A DNA stretch of 60,160 nt from Candidatus Magasanikbacteria bacterium RIFOXYD1_FULL_40_23 (GTDB lineage: Bacteria > Patescibacteriota > Patescibacteriia > Magasanikbacterales > GWA2-37-8). The DNA is taken from positions 1 through 60,160 of the forward strand of contig MFRA01000001.1 of assembly GCA_001783215.1 (NCBI GenBank), given 5' to 3'. This document shows, in pieces, positions 2,396 through 8,682 of this stretch; the stretch's first letter is position 1; every line of letters starts with the position of its first letter. The notes under the pieces were generated by a model. That model ran no database searches, was not told where the DNA came from, and saw nothing but the letters and a program-made list of their open reading frames with translations. The position numbers and the translations under genes were made by a program.

Positions 2396-2424
2396 TTGAC
2401 ATTTTAATATAAAAGTGCTAATCT
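2396..2424 (+). promoter_or_regulatory. sigma70-like promoter of the GNAT-ASCH gene
   Basis: TTGACA (2396-2401), 17 nt, TAATCT (2419-2424) with TGC just upstream. About 90 nt of leader with hairpins. Confidence 0.6.
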
Positions 2425-2515
2425 CGTCCTACCTATTTTGCCAGAAACGGCATAACGGGTATGTTTTGCTCAAAGCATGGAATGGTTCCGTGCTTAGCAA
2501 AACTCAGGAGAAGCC

Positions 2516-3847
2516 ATGTTGGAACGCAGGATCAGAGAAGCGAGACAGAACGACTTTCAGTTTGTATCGGACATTATGGATGCGGCGTTAGCGCCGTATT
2601 ATGATGGCGACCATCGTGCGCACGCGTCGCGTATCTTTTGGACACACATTAGTGGTGGGAAGGACAGTGTCGGGCACTTCTCGGAAGAGCAGAAGATGTT
2701 CATTATCGAGGAGGGGAACACTCGTATCGGAATAATCAATGTCGTTGGTAAACGGCAAGGAACATGGAAGATTAGCCCGCTCATCATCGCTAATGATTTT
2801 CAAGGGAAAGCTGGTTGTGGTAGTGAGCTCCTTGCTTTTGCGGAACGGTATATTCGCGAGCGTGGGGCTAGGCAGGCATACTGTACAGTGGCAGAACAGA
2901 ATCGCTCTGCACTGGCTTTCTTTTATCGGAAAGGGTACGTATATGCTGGTCGTTCGGTTAGTCATTACAAGCCGGGCGTAACCGAGATTATGCTTTACAA
3001 ACTTTTCTACTCTAACGAGGATGAAGAGCGTATTGACAGAGCTAGCATCTCTGTGGTTCCGTTCGAGGAACGATATCGTGAGGGCGTTTATCGAGTGATT
3101 CTCAATAGTGATTTACCCAAGTATTTTCGTGGGGTGGATCGGTCTTGGGTCGATGCGCTTTTTACTGGCTACGAAAGGCGTGATACAGGTGAGGTGAATC
3201 AGAAGTACAAGCTTATCTATGTTGCTGTCGATCGTGCTGGTGAAGTCTTGGGTGTGGCTGGTGTTACGCCGAAAAAGGGTCAGCCAATTAAGATTATGCC
3301 ATGCGCGGCTAGCAACCCTCAGGCTTTTGCGGCGTTGATTGCTGATCTACCTCAGCATTTGCGACAGTTTGGTAGAAAGCTGTACACACATATCGTGCCA
3401 TCAGTTGAGGAAACTGTCGTTCTACAGCGTATGGGATGGTCACTTGATGCAATGATGCCCGGTGCATACCACGAAAATTATTGTACCCAACAGTGGGGGA
3501 ACAATATGGAGGACAACACGATGCGAACTTTGCGGGTGAAGAATCGGTTTTTTAACGAGATCATGTCACGGCGTAAGACCCTCGAAGTGCGGGTAGCTTA
3601 TGCAAATATCAAGAGTATTCGTGTGGGTGAAAACATTCAGCTGCTCACCGGCGCTAATTCAGGAATTGTTCGAGTGCGAGCTGTTCGTACTTACACTACC
3701 TTTGAGTTAATGCTCTCGGCGGAGGATTCTAGCAAGGTCCTGCCAGGCATGGATAAGCCAGAAGCGCTGAGCTTGCTACGAGGTATCTACCCAGCCGACA
3801 AGGAAAGGCTGGGTGTGGTGGTGCTCGACATCGAGCCAGTGCGATAA
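2516..3847 (+). CDS. GNAT acetyltransferase / second degenerate GNAT-like module / C-terminal ASCH domain fusion protein (GC-rich cassette)
   Basis: 443 aa. AGGAG SD at 2506-2510. N-terminal GNAT with acetyl-CoA motif FQGKAGCGSELL. C-terminal ~105 aa (from about 3524) matches the ASCH pattern (LRVKNRFFNEIMSRRKTLEVR...VGENI...GVVVLDIE). Confidence 0.8.
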   Translation: MLERRIREARQNDFQFVSDIMDAALAPYYDGDHRAHASRIFWTHISGGKDSVGHFSEEQKMFIIEEGNTRIGIINVVGKRQGTWKISPLIIANDFQGKAGCGSELLAFAERYIRERGARQAYCTVAEQNRSALAFFYRKGYVYAGRSVSHYKPGVTEIMLYKLFYSNEDEERIDRASISVVPFEERYREGVYRVILNSDLPKYFRGVDRSWVDALFTGYERRDTGEVNQKYKLIYVAVDRAGEVLGVAGVTPKKGQPIKIMPCAASNPQAFAALIADLPQHLRQFGRKLYTHIVPSVEETVVLQRMGWSLDAMMPGAYHENYCTQQWGNNMEDNTMRTLRVKNRFFNEIMSRRKTLEVRVAYANIKSIRVGENIQLLTGANSGIVRVRAVRTYTTFELMLSAEDSSKVLPGMDKPEALSLLRGIYPADKERLGVVVLDIEPVR

Positions 3848-3895
3848 GAGTAGTTCGAGTGCGGTCGACCAAATTGTAGGAACGCAAAAGAAAGA

Positions 3896-3926
3896 TCTGG
3901 AGCCCGCACGCTCCAGACCTATTTTT
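3896..3926 (+). terminator. GC-rich stem terminator of the GNAT-ASCH cassette
   Basis: tctggagc-ccgcac-gctccaga followed by cctattttt. Confidence 0.7.
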
Positions 3927-3978
3927 ACTTCAAAAATTGTTTTGGGTTGAAAATAGATATATAATTAGTAATAAATAT

Positions 3979-4311
3979 ATGAATACTTTTGATATAAACG
4001 TACAGGAACCATATTTTAGCAGTATTCTTTCTGGAAAAAAAACTGTAGAAGGCCGTTTAAATAAGGGTAAGTTTTTAGATATTCAAGTTGGTGATATTTT
4101 AAAAATAAACAATGAAGTTGAGTATAAAGTGGTGGAAAAAAACTCTTACAAAAATTTTAGAGAGATGATAGAAGCGGAAGGTTTGAGTAATGTTATACCG
4201 GATAAAAAAACAGTAGAAGAGGCTGTTGCGGTTTATTACAAATTTTATACTAAGGAAGACGAATTGAAATATGGGGTTGTTGGAGTAAAGATTGTTAGAC
4301 CTTTAGTTTAA
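3979..4311 (+). CDS. stand-alone ASCH domain protein (native low-GC composition)
   Basis: 110 aa from ATG 3979 (the track start 3937 is a TTG). Pattern QEPYFSSILSGKKTVEGRLNKGKF..VGDIL...GVVGVKIV is typical of ASCH/PUA-like barrels. Confidence 0.75.
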   Translation: MNTFDINVQEPYFSSILSGKKTVEGRLNKGKFLDIQVGDILKINNEVEYKVVEKNSYKNFREMIEAEGLSNVIPDKKTVEEAVAVYYKFYTKEDELKYGVVGVKIVRPLV

Positions 4312-4367
4312 ATGCAGTCTTGCTCCGTATCTTTAATTTTTATTATAAATCGTTTTAACAGTTTATC

Positions 4368-4388
4368 GCTTGGGCTACAAAATAAAAA
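4368..4388 (+). repeat. third, shorter direct copy of the tRNA-Glu 3' end motif
   Basis: gcttgggctacaaaataaaaa versus gttggggctacaaataaaaa. It again abuts a terminator hairpin. Confidence 0.5.
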
Positions 4389-4418
4389 CAGGCAAGAAAA
4401 TGCCTGTTTTTATTTTGT
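4377..4418 (+). terminator. rho-independent terminator
   Basis: acaaaataaaaacaggca-agaaaa-tgcctgtttttattttgt. Confidence 0.75.
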
Positions 4419-4427
4419 TTAAAACCG

Positions 4428-4456
4428 TTGACTTTTAATAAAAAAATTGCTAGTTT
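4428..4456 (+). promoter_or_regulatory. sigma70-like promoter of the kinase cassette
   Basis: TTGACT (4428-4433), 17 nt, TAGTTT (4451-4456) preceded by TGC. Layout is very similar to the promoter at 2396. Confidence 0.5.
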
Positions 4457-4490
4457 AAATCCCTGAACCTTGACAACAAAGGAGCCGCAA

Positions 4491-5402
4491 ATGAAAACGC
4501 TCAGCGATTGGAAGGGTCGCTTGATCGTTGGCCGTTACGAGCTGAGAGAGCATATCAACACAAGTGAGATGAGTTGTGTGTTCAAGGCTTGGGATTGCCA
4601 AGGTAAATGGGAGGTGATTGTAAAAATTGCCATTAATAGTTCTAGGTTTGATGATCGGGTAACTCGGCTAAAGCGCGAAACCGAAGCTCTTCGAACGCTT
4701 AAGCATCCGGCCATCGTGCGTTTGCTCGACTCTGGCCAAATCGACAGACTGTCATACTTCTTGGTGTTGGAATATATACAGGGTAACGATTTGCAGATGG
4801 CTCTTGAGCTCTTTCGTTACTTTTCTATCGATGAGTCTATCTCGGTGTTAGTGCAGGTGCTAGAAGCTCTGCATGAGGCGCATAAAAAAAATATGATTCA
4901 TCGCGATGTAAAATCTGCCAATATAATGATTGCTCCGGATGGAGTTAAGCTCGTCGATTTTGGTCTGGTGAAGTTTGACCCAGACTATAATCCTCTTAGA
5001 AAACCAACGGCCACTGGAAATATGGTTGGTACGAGGCTGTATGCTTCGCCCGAGCAAGCCATGGGTACTGGTAGGTATGATTGTCGTTCGGATCTATACT
5101 CTTGCGGAGTTGTTTTGTATGAAATCCTTACCCGTTCGTTGCCGTTTTACGAAATGGATGAGGATTCAGAAGAATGGGAGGATTATTGGAATCATCTGCG
5201 TCCATTTTCAAAAATATATAGCATCCCAAAAAAGGTGCAAGCAATCGTTTGGAAGGCGCTGTCCGTAGATCCAGATTTACGCTATCAAACCGCCGAAGAG
5301 ATGCGGGTCGCGCTATTGGCAGCAAGACCGTTCTCGTTGAGGCGGTTTGTCAAAGGGTTGTTGTCAAAGGCCCGGAGATATTGGAGGTGGTTTTGGGAAT
5401 AG
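4491..5402 (+). CDS. Hanks-type Ser/Thr protein kinase, kinase domain only with a basic/aromatic C-terminal tail (GC-rich cassette)
   Basis: 303 aa from ATG 4491 with AAGGAG at 4479-4484. VIVKI lysine, HRDVKSANIM catalytic loop, DFG, SPEQ (APE-like). Confidence 0.9.
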   Translation: MKTLSDWKGRLIVGRYELREHINTSEMSCVFKAWDCQGKWEVIVKIAINSSRFDDRVTRLKRETEALRTLKHPAIVRLLDSGQIDRLSYFLVLEYIQGNDLQMALELFRYFSIDESISVLVQVLEALHEAHKKNMIHRDVKSANIMIAPDGVKLVDFGLVKFDPDYNPLRKPTATGNMVGTRLYASPEQAMGTGRYDCRSDLYSCGVVLYEILTRSLPFYEMDEDSEEWEDYWNHLRPFSKIYSIPKKVQAIVWKALSVDPDLRYQTAEEMRVALLAARPFSLRRFVKGLLSKARRYWRWFWE

Positions 5403-5409
5403 TTATTAC

Positions 5410-5443
5410 GAGTCGTCTGCTATCACAGGCGACTCTTATTTTT
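5410..5443 (+). terminator. terminator of the kinase cassette
   Basis: gagtcgtct...aggcgactc stem followed by ttattttt. Confidence 0.65.
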
Positions 5444-5554
5444 GAAATGAGCGAGTGAAATAGCAGGTGAGGTATTTATAATCGCTTGTGAGTTATAAAT
5501 ATTGAACCTGGATATTTCCGAACGAATGAGAAAATATGTGGCTTTAGCCCATAT
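5444..5554 (+). repeat. intergenic repeat family 2, copy A
   Basis: GAGCGAG..TATTTATAA-N-TTATAAATA..CGAACGAATGAG..ATATGTGGCTTTAGCCCATAT. Near-identical to 51683-51861. Confidence 0.8.
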
Positions 5555-7923: not shown

Positions 7924-8682
7924 ATGTTCCAAGATACCCATGGTGTGTTCGAGTCCGTTCAGGGTCTTACCCATCCGCTTCGTATGCTTCTGCTGGTGCC
8001 AGAAATTCTGGATCAGCTCAAGCTAGTTCTGTGGAGTGCTGACAGTGTCGGCACCGCCCAGATCCAGGATGCGATCCAGCAGGTCGGCATCGATGGTCCG
8101 AATGTGGTTATCAAGGGCACGCTCGGACTGGACTTCAGCGATTCTGCCCTGCCCGTCGATCATCGGCAGTGGAGTCTAAATCAGAAGCTCGAGGCGGCTT
8201 GGATCATCCTTGCTGCCAACTCGTTCGACGTCGGTTGTAATGACATCGGGCTTAACCTAAAGCATGATGATGCTGGGTTTCGCTTCTCCGACGAGGGGGG
8301 TGATTTCATGAAGGCTTGTCGTGAGGTGCAGAAGCAGCTCAGCGATGTGCTGCGCGGCGCTACCACCGTTCAGGCACTAGCCTCGGCCTTGCTCGACAAG
8401 ATCATGGCGAAGCTCGATGATTCCAAGGTCATCGACAAGATCGGGATCACCAACGAAGAGCGCAAGCATGTGGTGGTCTGGATCAAGCACCACTGGGTGC
8501 ACGAGACCGTGGCCTACGCCGCCTTCAAGCGAGGTCATGTCCTCTGCGAGGTGTACAACATCCTCGACGCGCTTGACTACTATTTCACCAACGGCCGGAC
8601 CCTCAAGGAAGAGGGGGTCACGTTCGATGGCGAGACTGGTATGGAGACAACGCCGCACTGTGGCGAGATCTTTCCCTACTAG
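7924..8682 (+). CDS. hypothetical protein, strongly GC-rich cassette
   Basis: 252 aa. AGGAG at 7913-7917. Hand count of 8401-8520 gives 57% GC. No recognisable motif. Shadow ORFs on both strands come from the high GC. Confidence 0.75.
   Translation: MFQDTHGVFESVQGLTHPLRMLLLVPEILDQLKLVLWSADSVGTAQIQDAIQQVGIDGPNVVIKGTLGLDFSDSALPVDHRQWSLNQKLEAAWIILAANSFDVGCNDIGLNLKHDDAGFRFSDEGGDFMKACREVQKQLSDVLRGATTVQALASALLDKIMAKLDDSKVIDKIGITNEERKHVVVWIKHHWVHETVAYAAFKRGHVLCEVYNILDALDYYFTNGRTLKEEGVTFDGETGMETTPHCGEIFPY

Follow-up and report, generated by a model that had tools for sequence, protein, structure and literature searches.

The window analysed here, a 60,160-nucleotide stretch of Candidatus Magasanikbacteria DNA (contig MFRA01000001.1), carries three same-strand genes downstream of tRNA-Glu(CUC). 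Its list of open reading frames (ORFs) gives a 443-residue fusion of two GNAT domains with an ASCH domain, a 110-residue stand-alone ASCH protein, and a Ser/Thr kinase. The fusion and the small ASCH protein form a pair of writer/eraser type that is real, unpublished and uncharacterised, and of which the window holds a further member; the kinase does not belong with them. What might the pair do? We give about even credence to the reading that it consists of an acyl-CoA-dependent cytosine-N4 writer with a built-in pocket and a free ASCH eraser, acquired as a unit into a variable hotspot. The two genes are:

2516–3847, + strand: tandem-GNAT–ASCH fusion, 443 amino acids (profile, alignment, AlphaFold)
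3979–4311, + strand: stand-alone ASCH partner, 110 amino acids, PH0355/PF0455 type, octapeptide GKKTVEGR

How widely is the pairing kept? The fusion family comprises at least 878 database clusters, conserved over the full length, with a mean column identity of 59% in an alignment of 30 sequences and a mean pairwise identity of 58% across phyla. A scan of species-representative genomes found the fusion in 194 of them, so that the architecture, a survey of which had been advised when the locus was first annotated, proves to be recurrent. The carriers are mostly Patescibacteria (Saccharibacteria including Nanosynbacter, Parcubacteria/Paceibacterota, Magasanik-, Uhr- and Berkelbacteria), many of them Saccharibacteria; one Aenigmarchaeota genome, one Promethearchaeota genome and scattered others complete the set. 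Closer to home, the fusion was not found in the 40 relatives of the order that were searched, 15 of them of the same genus, nor was the small ASCH gene found in the same-genus genomes.

We then compared the neighbourhoods of 80 other fusion-carrying loci, mostly from Patescibacteria, by phmmer searches of six-frame ORFs. An ASCH gene of 102–155 amino acids lies at most 128 bp from the fusion in 72 of the 80, with spacers of 30–128 bp. In 39 loci it precedes the fusion in the same orientation; in 28 it lies downstream, the two genes being convergent; and in five, as in the window, it follows in the same orientation. Of the eight loci that lack a partner, four lack the contig room for one. No third neighbour is common to more than 10 of the 80 loci. 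The view that the fusion has no conserved neighbour, drawn from four contexts, was overturned, the partners there being small ORFs that carry no Pfam label. The pairwise distances of fusion and partner correlate strongly (Mantel r = 0.84, p ≤ 0.001), and a single locus, L049, holds the nearest relative of both window genes, at 67% identity for the fusion and 72% for the partner. Because of the conserved adjacency, this correlation and the shared nearest relative, we conclude from the sequences that fusion and partner are a unit in inheritance and transfer.

The fusion itself is built of three modules: an active GNAT (residues ~1–165), a degenerate GNAT (~175–330) and an ASCH barrel (~337–443) bearing K354, E357 and R359. 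Profiles span residues 6–152 for the GNAT and 340–442 for the ASCH domain. The scores, 41.5 bits for Acetyltransf_1 (PF00583, residues 43–141; gathering cut-off 20.7) and 32.4 bits for ASCH (PF04266; cut-off 21.2), place both assignments above the Pfam gathering scores, which settles the profile check that had been suggested for them. By the criterion of the acetyl-CoA pyrophosphate-binding loop, Q/R-x-x-G-x-G/A, domain 1 is intact: it keeps the loop as FQGKAGCG, and G100 and G102 are conserved across the family. In the alignment domain 2 repeats the same layout with the loop missing, and is thus degenerate. The AlphaFold model has a predicted local distance difference test score (pLDDT) of 90.7 and a predicted template modelling score (pTM) of 0.81. 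Over residues 1–330 Foldseek matched it to the tandem-GNAT structures 2wpw, 7wx5, 6rfy and 5kf1 (E ~1e-10 to 1e-11), and the C-terminus superposes on PH0355 with a template modelling (TM) score of 0.89 and a root-mean-square deviation of 1.6 Å; the structure search yielded no single solved structure covering the three-domain span. Profiles, alignment and AlphaFold/Foldseek therefore agree with the 443-residue GNAT–GNAT–ASCH chain of the original prediction, with its first GNAT intact, and the tandem-GNAT match over residues 1–330 together with the loop-less repeat upholds the degenerate second.

Other searches narrowed the assignment. The closest single-domain GNAT matches of the fusion are of RimI, PaiA and SpeG type, weak and far under the family cut-offs. 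An NCBIfam search of the three proteins added nothing specific. The C-terminal domain scores as ASCH and gave no match to the EVE domain, and a Pfam search found in the fusion neither GNAT_acetyltr_2 (PF13718), nor helicase/DUF1726, nor any ATP-binding module. Many of the invariant residues of the family (Y29, G31, H33, H36, R39, H44 and D50) cluster in the N-terminal helices, the region that in GNATs generally forms the acceptor site. Given that clustering, a single specific acceptor is likely to be conserved throughout the family.

What of the two ASCH modules? The partner scores 44.3 bits against the same PF04266 model. Membership of the GKER subgroup of ASCH is defined by the octapeptide G-x-K-x-x-E-x-R with its catalytic Lys and Glu. 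The K, E and R of the partner's octapeptide are kept in 73 of 73 partners. The corresponding stretch of the fusion is RRKTLEVR; K354, E357 and R359 are invariant in 30 aligned sequences, and the first Gly, which at least 90% of family members keep, is Arg in the window copy. The nearest ASCH relatives of both modules are the Pyrococcus proteins PH0355, PF0455 and PF0469 (E = 7.5e-20 for the partner). A recent preprint reports tests of 19 ASCH proteins, among them TthASCH, EOLA1, TRIP4 and six proteins of Pyrococcus kukulkanii: all 19 took N4-acetylcytidine (ac4C) off tRNA in vitro, most hydrolysed free ac4C, both GKER- and GKTR-type proteins were active, and the Lys and the Glu/Thr of G-x-K-x-x-[E/T/S]-x-R were essential for ac4C removal (10.64898/2026.02.27.708502).

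In the host genome (1.07 Mb, 8 contigs) neither TmcA (PF13718) nor TmcAL (PF05636) was found by searches whose positive controls worked, and the only two ASCH domains are those of the fusion and its partner. With no TmcA or TmcAL and no further ASCH domain in the genome, the putative eraser would have arrived together with the sole candidate writer.

A distant relative bears on the acceptor. WP_156895395, encoded on plasmid p1 of Rhodococcus sp. 2G (L129:3929-5275), matches the fusion at 32% identity over residues 24–333 (E = 9e-38). It has the same length and the signature motifs YYGGDHxAH, KRxGTxKISPLIV, YCTV..NRSA, PKKG and GWxLDAxxPGA, and where the fusion has ASCH its C-terminus is a MazG-like/dUTPase nucleotide pyrophosphohydrolase domain. 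One tandem-GNAT core is thus joined to two different nucleotide-handling domains, which points to a pyrimidine nucleoside or nucleotide as acceptor. The neighbours of the Rhodococcus gene (rfbB, a DegT aminotransferase, GT4, a methyltransferase and a nucleoside 2-deoxyribosyltransferase) look like genes for making a natural product of the cytosine sugar-nucleoside class. In the amicetin pathway cytosine N4 is acted on by AmiF, an amide synthase of GNAT type with a putative link to the fusion. The Rhodococcus enzymes are the set to be expected of a pathway to a cytosine disaccharide nucleoside; amicetin is one such compound, and its composition has been described (PMC7040171).

Since ASCH enzymes act on N4-acylcytosine, the genome lacks TmcA and TmcAL, and the Rhodococcus protein has swapped its C-terminal domain, cytosine is the target we infer. 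The GNAT of the fusion would transfer an acyl group, probably acetyl, to the exocyclic N4 amine of cytosine, in a cytidine nucleoside or nucleotide or in a cytidine within tRNA. The degenerate second GNAT probably shapes the acceptor site, and the fused ASCH may provide a pocket for cytosine or N4-acylcytosine. The 110-residue ASCH protein would hydrolyse the same amide, and so act as the eraser. The two genes are transcribed separately, and the writer would be held low relative to the eraser. The two-gene module is self-contained, and would have entered the tRNA-Glu hotspot whole, by horizontal transfer. The RNA-acetylation writer and eraser of the original prediction survive in part: the conserved ASCH catalytic motif fits that idea, and nothing specific to a toxin or to defence accompanies it.

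Several points weigh against the cytosine-N4 assignment. Judged from sequence, the acceptor could be other than cytosine, and the link to Rhodococcus stands at 32% identity. A writer fused to eraser-type catalytic residues is paradoxical, for the cycle would be futile if the fused ASCH did more than bind. The genes have separate promoters and terminators and are convergent in 28 loci, so that their co-regulation is putative. Finally, the GC and leader statistics given below count related genomes as independent. A bolder version can be entertained tentatively, as possible rather than probable: the fusion would found a third family of cytidine N4-acyltransferases, ATP-independent and unrelated to TmcA/NAT10 and TmcAL, with its own N4-acylcytosine pocket and always accompanied by a dedicated ASCH eraser, a portable reversible switch in ultra-small symbionts otherwise lacking ac4C machinery. 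Codon composition and the structured leader would then set the writer low and the eraser high.

The two genes differ sharply in composition. The fusion has a GC content of ~0.48, the small ASCH gene one of 0.30 and the kinase one of 0.45, against ~0.38 for the host and flanking genes. Across 67 loci with enough flanking genes, the GC content at third codon positions (GC3) of the fusion exceeds that of the flank in 56 (mean +0.16, p ~1e-10), and that of the partner is below the flank in 59 (mean −0.10, p ~1e-10). The same pattern of GC-rich fusion and AT-rich partner is seen in low-GC and in high-GC hosts. Separate origins for the two genes were considered and rejected, because the contrast recurs in 56–59 of the 67 loci and because the genes co-evolve. 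The small ASCH gene is real, as first annotated; its description there as native in composition was misleading, low GC being a trait of the whole family.

The leader of the fusion is also distinctive. In 79 loci the fusion leaders are more structured (mean z −1.93) than control leaders taken from the other genes of those loci (mean z −0.93; p = 2e-7). Only structure is enriched; among loci the leader sequence is not conserved, and Rfam, at gathering and at permissive thresholds, gave no family for it. One idea is that the GC contrast comes from codon-level tuning, which would hold down the amount of the large protein and raise that of the small one; the structured leader is in line with it. 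Together, the skew at synonymous sites and the structured leader suggest lower expression of the writer than of the eraser.

How are these genes set into the locus? The remaining features, all on the + strand, are as follows.

2075–2147, + strand: tRNA-Glu(CUC) (ARAGORN and Rfam), the anchor of the variable hotspot
2146–2186, + strand: terminator hairpin following the tRNA gene, its 18-nt arms free of mismatches (inverted repeat I4)
2189–2356, + strand: structured element of 168 nt, after tRNA-Glu and before the fusion promoter (folding z = −3.6)
2357–2385, + strand: terminator hairpin AAAATCCGC...GCGGATTTT (from sequence, compared with G009, G010 and G004)
2396–2424, + strand: putative promoter-like site of the fusion gene, TTGACA, 17 nt, TG-n-TAATCT (sequence, motif search)
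2463–2503, + strand: 19-bp hairpin in the fusion 5' leader, abutting the AGGAG Shine–Dalgarno sequence (leader z = −5.95)
3896–3927, + strand: intrinsic terminator 3' of the fusion gene (hairpin prediction)
4368–4418, + strand: third tRNA-3'-end-like repeat (4368–4386), overlapping a terminator hairpin (4377–4418)
4428–4456, + strand: putative promoter-like site of the kinase (sequence, motif search)
4491–5402, + strand: stand-alone Hanks-type Ser/Thr kinase, likely start ATG 4491; the ORF opens at TTG 4470
5410–5445, + strand: intrinsic terminator 3' of the kinase (hairpin prediction)

Much of this layout had been foreseen in the original prediction and stands. All three genes and their domains are present in a same-strand row after tRNA-Glu, and a hairpin lies behind each of the three, in keeping with the separate terminators described. 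The near-duplicate promoter boxes at 2396 and 4428 both exist, and a motif search found them to be the only two instances of the strict shared layout in the 60-kb window. A layout similar to that of the 4428–4456 site lies upstream of the kinase in the relative G005.

The tRNA-linked island is likewise genuine, a variable region with empty counterparts. The order TypA–tRNA-Glu(CUC)–[variable]–Dus–PLD holds in 10 of 10 same-genus genomes fetched. In three of them (G009, G010 and G002) the site is empty, tRNA-Glu abutting Dus with a gap of at most 30 bp; a hairpin of the type found at 2357–2385 lies directly 3' of tRNA-Glu in the empty-site genomes. In the window and in seven other relatives the site is occupied by 1.1–6.7 kb of differing cargo. 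By eye, this cargo includes a DtxR-like regulator with a transporter, a pair resembling the Panacea/SocA pair in G007 (L044), and in G004 (L039) and G012 (L047) a minus-strand gene of 61–63% GC encoding 403 amino acids together with a membrane protein.

Repeats of the tRNA 3' end occur at 2137–2155, at 2342–2360 (95% identical) and, weakly, at 4368–4386 (79%). The position of the last is suggestive: together with its terminator (4368–4418) it lies exactly between the partner ASCH gene and the kinase promoter, and it is a possible distal insertion scar, which would place the pair inside the insert and the kinase outside it. No integrase or recombinase ORF occurs between 2148 and 5620. Of the 80 other loci, 20 have a tRNA gene no more than 1.5 kb from the fusion, and in L049 it is again tRNA-Glu. 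Further along the window, at 7924–8682 (+ strand), between PLD and glutamate dehydrogenase, lies an ORF of 252 amino acids with 57% GC and a GC3 of 0.72; it has no Pfam, NCBIfam or PADLOC match and may be a foreign insert.

In the 168-nt element at 2189–2356 the 5' arm matches the T-arm and acceptor 3' strand of the tRNA perfectly in inverted orientation, over 17 nt; at the 3' end of the element the acceptor end of the tRNA recurs, with CCA added. The element is also present 3' of tRNA-Glu in G004 and G012, with compensatory changes. A second copy in the host genome, on contig 5 (G000:C5:260424-260558; L135:2426-2557), follows tRNA-Glu(UUC); both its ends are matched to that tRNA instead, and it has different cargo downstream. 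This cargo (L135:2804-5145) comprises a gene for a 301-residue protein of unassigned family and, overlapping it downstream, one for a 479-residue RelA_SpoT protein (PF04607, E = 5.5e-12), which could be a toxin or defence pair of the small alarmone-synthetase type.

With a covariance model, R1, the element was found in 78 of 240 genomes of the order, in up to 12 copies per genome. A co-oriented tRNA of varied identity lies just upstream in 16 of 20 fetched loci (L136-L155), typically at ~40 nt. Sizes range over ~130–170 nt, the ends mirror the 3' half of the neighbouring tRNA, and the element heads variable cargo. Rfam gave no family for it at gathering or at permissive thresholds, and a GAGGAAAGUCC box resembling that of RNase P was set aside, no match to an RNase P model supporting it. 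The element is absent from the 80 other module-carrying loci. It is outside the protein module, and may be the mark of a mobile system with tRNA genes as its targets.

If the kinase is not part of the module, what is it? The Pkinase profile (PF00069) scores 142 bits, and the catalytic K, HRD, DFG and SPE are visible in the alignment; the protein is, as originally described, catalytically complete and has no sensor domain. An AAAGGAG Shine–Dalgarno sequence lies 7 nt upstream of ATG 4491, and the N-termini of relatives agree, so that the start is most likely ATG 4491 and not TTG 4470, giving a product of 303 amino acids. PADLOC matched it to the PD-T4-6 model at 218.8 bits, a match that may not be specific since the generic PknB kinase-domain model scores equally well (214.8 bits), and it falls far below every NCBIfam cut-off.

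Short homologues with 40–52% identity occur in the same-genus genomes G004, G005, G008 and G012. All four lie in the interval from tRNA-Glu to Dus, in genomes that have neither the fusion nor the small ASCH gene, and the slot diverges far faster than the flanking TypA and Dus (81–94%). The kinase clade numbers ~20 clusters of 284–317 amino acids with Magasanikbacteria/Parcubacteria labels; beyond it identity is below 40%. The window kinase shares its basic/aromatic tail only with those of G004 and G012. The G008 kinase (L040, G008:C50, ~2972-3829) has HGD/DFA in place of HRD/DFG and may be a pseudokinase.

Within 6 kb of the fusion a kinase occurs in two of the 80 loci, and both are large unrelated proteins. 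This rarity, together with the homologues that occupy the same slot where the pair is absent, removes the kinase from the module to which it had been assigned; of the three-gene co-occurrence proposed with that assignment, the adjacency of fusion and small ASCH (72 of 80) is what stands. We conclude that the kinase (303–310 amino acids) is an unrelated, fast-evolving, lineage-specific accessory gene at the Dus-proximal end of the hotspot.

Might the pair be a toxin and its antidote? On that account the fusion would acetylate RNA or aminoacyl-tRNA and arrest growth, and the free ASCH protein would reverse the modification in the manner of DarT/DarG. A sporadic spread (one of 41 genomes in the order, 194 species overall) fits horizontal transfer, the hotspot is an accessory one whose other cargo includes the Panacea/SocA-like pair in G007, a RelA/SpoT-domain gene follows the sister element, and the GC skew and structured leader fit a low writer and a high eraser. 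GNAT–EVE+ASCH operons, moreover, have been predicted to be toxin–antitoxin-like (Bell et al. 2020, PMC7641849). We nevertheless regard this account as rather unlikely. The genes are not co-transcribed; 28 of the 72 pairs are convergent; the spacers measure 30–128 bp; defence genes are not conserved nearby in the 80 loci; the fusion, at 58% mean pairwise identity, evolves slowly, unlike typical arms-race genes; and a tblastn search of sequenced phages and plasmids returned no full-length homologue. PADLOC gave no match for the partner and a weak one for the fusion (E = 4e-4), so that with generic kinase matches besides, and no conserved third neighbour, the defence or toxin role proposed earlier gains nothing. 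The larger scheme in which fusion, small ASCH and kinase make up one signalling-controlled RNA-acetylation or defence system is most improbable. Adjacency, a common strand and similar promoter boxes speak for it in this one genome only; against it stand the two loci in 80 with unrelated kinases, the kinase homologues found at this position in G004, G005, G008 and G012, where the pair is missing, and the tRNA-end-like repeat and terminator that separate pair from kinase.

The remaining alternatives concern the acceptor. If the pair acted only on free small molecules, in salvage or detoxification of N4-acylated cytosine nucleosides such as amicetin-type antibiotics, it would be odd, for detoxification, to have an enzyme that adds the acyl group beside one that removes it. 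Members of the family are also known from DPANN, from Asgard archaea and from many CPR (candidate phyla radiation) bacteria other than Saccharibacteria, and no transporter or pathway gene is conserved nearby; we consider this unlikely, even though the nearest tandem-GNAT relative outside the CPR sits in a cluster resembling those for sugar-nucleoside antibiotics and YqfB-type and many GKER ASCH proteins hydrolyse free N4-acylcytidines. Many carriers are Saccharibacteria, which are often epibionts of Actinomycetota. On this reading the amicetin-type antibiotics would be made by actinomycete hosts or neighbours. Amicetin is a cytosine disaccharide nucleoside (PMC7040171). There is, lastly, a slim chance that the fusion is a protein or small-amine acetyltransferase, RimI-like or acting on polyamines, whose ASCH domain and partner merely bind RNA or the ribosome. 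ASCH and PUA domains classically bind nucleic acid, and RimI, PaiA and SpeG types are the closest single-domain matches; yet those matches fall far under the family cut-offs, simple binding has no need of the K/E/R motif that is perfectly conserved in both ASCH modules, and a nucleotide acceptor is indicated by the MazG-like nucleotide hydrolase that stands in for ASCH in the Rhodococcus protein.

Why would a cytosine-N4 writer and eraser matter? To our knowledge ac4C is the only acetylated RNA base, with only two families of writer, and the first ASCH erasers were reported in 2026. If true, the proposal would offer a compact, ATP-independent writer coupled physically and genetically to an eraser, and hence a testable case of reversible cytosine acylation; it could also explain orphan ASCH genes in many genomes. 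The pair occurs in ~194 species of CPR bacteria and of DPANN/Asgard archaea, presumed to lack the canonical enzymes. The tRNA-linked hotspot, for its part, gathers unrelated accessory genes in a 1-Mb genome, and warns against guilt by adjacency in a single genome.

How does the pair compare with known systems? The GKER-type ASCH proteins (PH0355, PF0455 and PF0469, PDB 2z0t, 1s04 and 1xne; TthASCH, EOLA1 and the P. kukulkanii proteins) share with both modules here the octapeptide. They stand alone, whereas here one copy is fused behind two GNATs and the free copy is its obligate neighbour, and here the activity is predicted. Among tandem GNATs, 2wpw/2wpx of the clavulanate pathway, VipF, Eis/Eis2 and the glucosamine and histidine N-acetyltransferases likewise combine one active with one degenerate GNAT; unlike them, and unlike WP_156895395, the fusion has an ASCH domain and an ASCH partner. 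TmcA/NAT10/Kre33 and TmcAL make the proposed product, ac4C, and would be its functional analogues; they have no homology to the fusion.

Type II pairs such as TacT and AtaT join a small single-domain GNAT toxin to a small DNA-binding antitoxin with which it is co-transcribed. The fusion, in contrast, has 443 amino acids and three domains, and its partner is an ASCH of enzyme type, whose gene lies 30–128 bp away and is convergent with that of the fusion in 28 of the 72 loci. The kinase resembles the single-gene defence kinases of PD-T4-6 type in having a complete Pkinase domain and no sensor domain. The (PIN)–GNAT–EVE + ASCH operons, a prediction of Iyer et al. (2013) and of Bell et al. (2020; PMC7641849), are a parallel to the pair. 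In both, a GNAT is fused to a modified-base binder of the PUA superfamily, a separate ASCH gene adjoins it, and the system is uncharacterised. In the present pair, however, the fused barrel is ASCH and not EVE, there are two GNATs and no PIN, and the range is mainly Patescibacteria and DPANN; the association of those operons with type I restriction–modification and AAA_17 ATPase genes has no counterpart among the 80 loci, where no neighbour recurs in more than 10.

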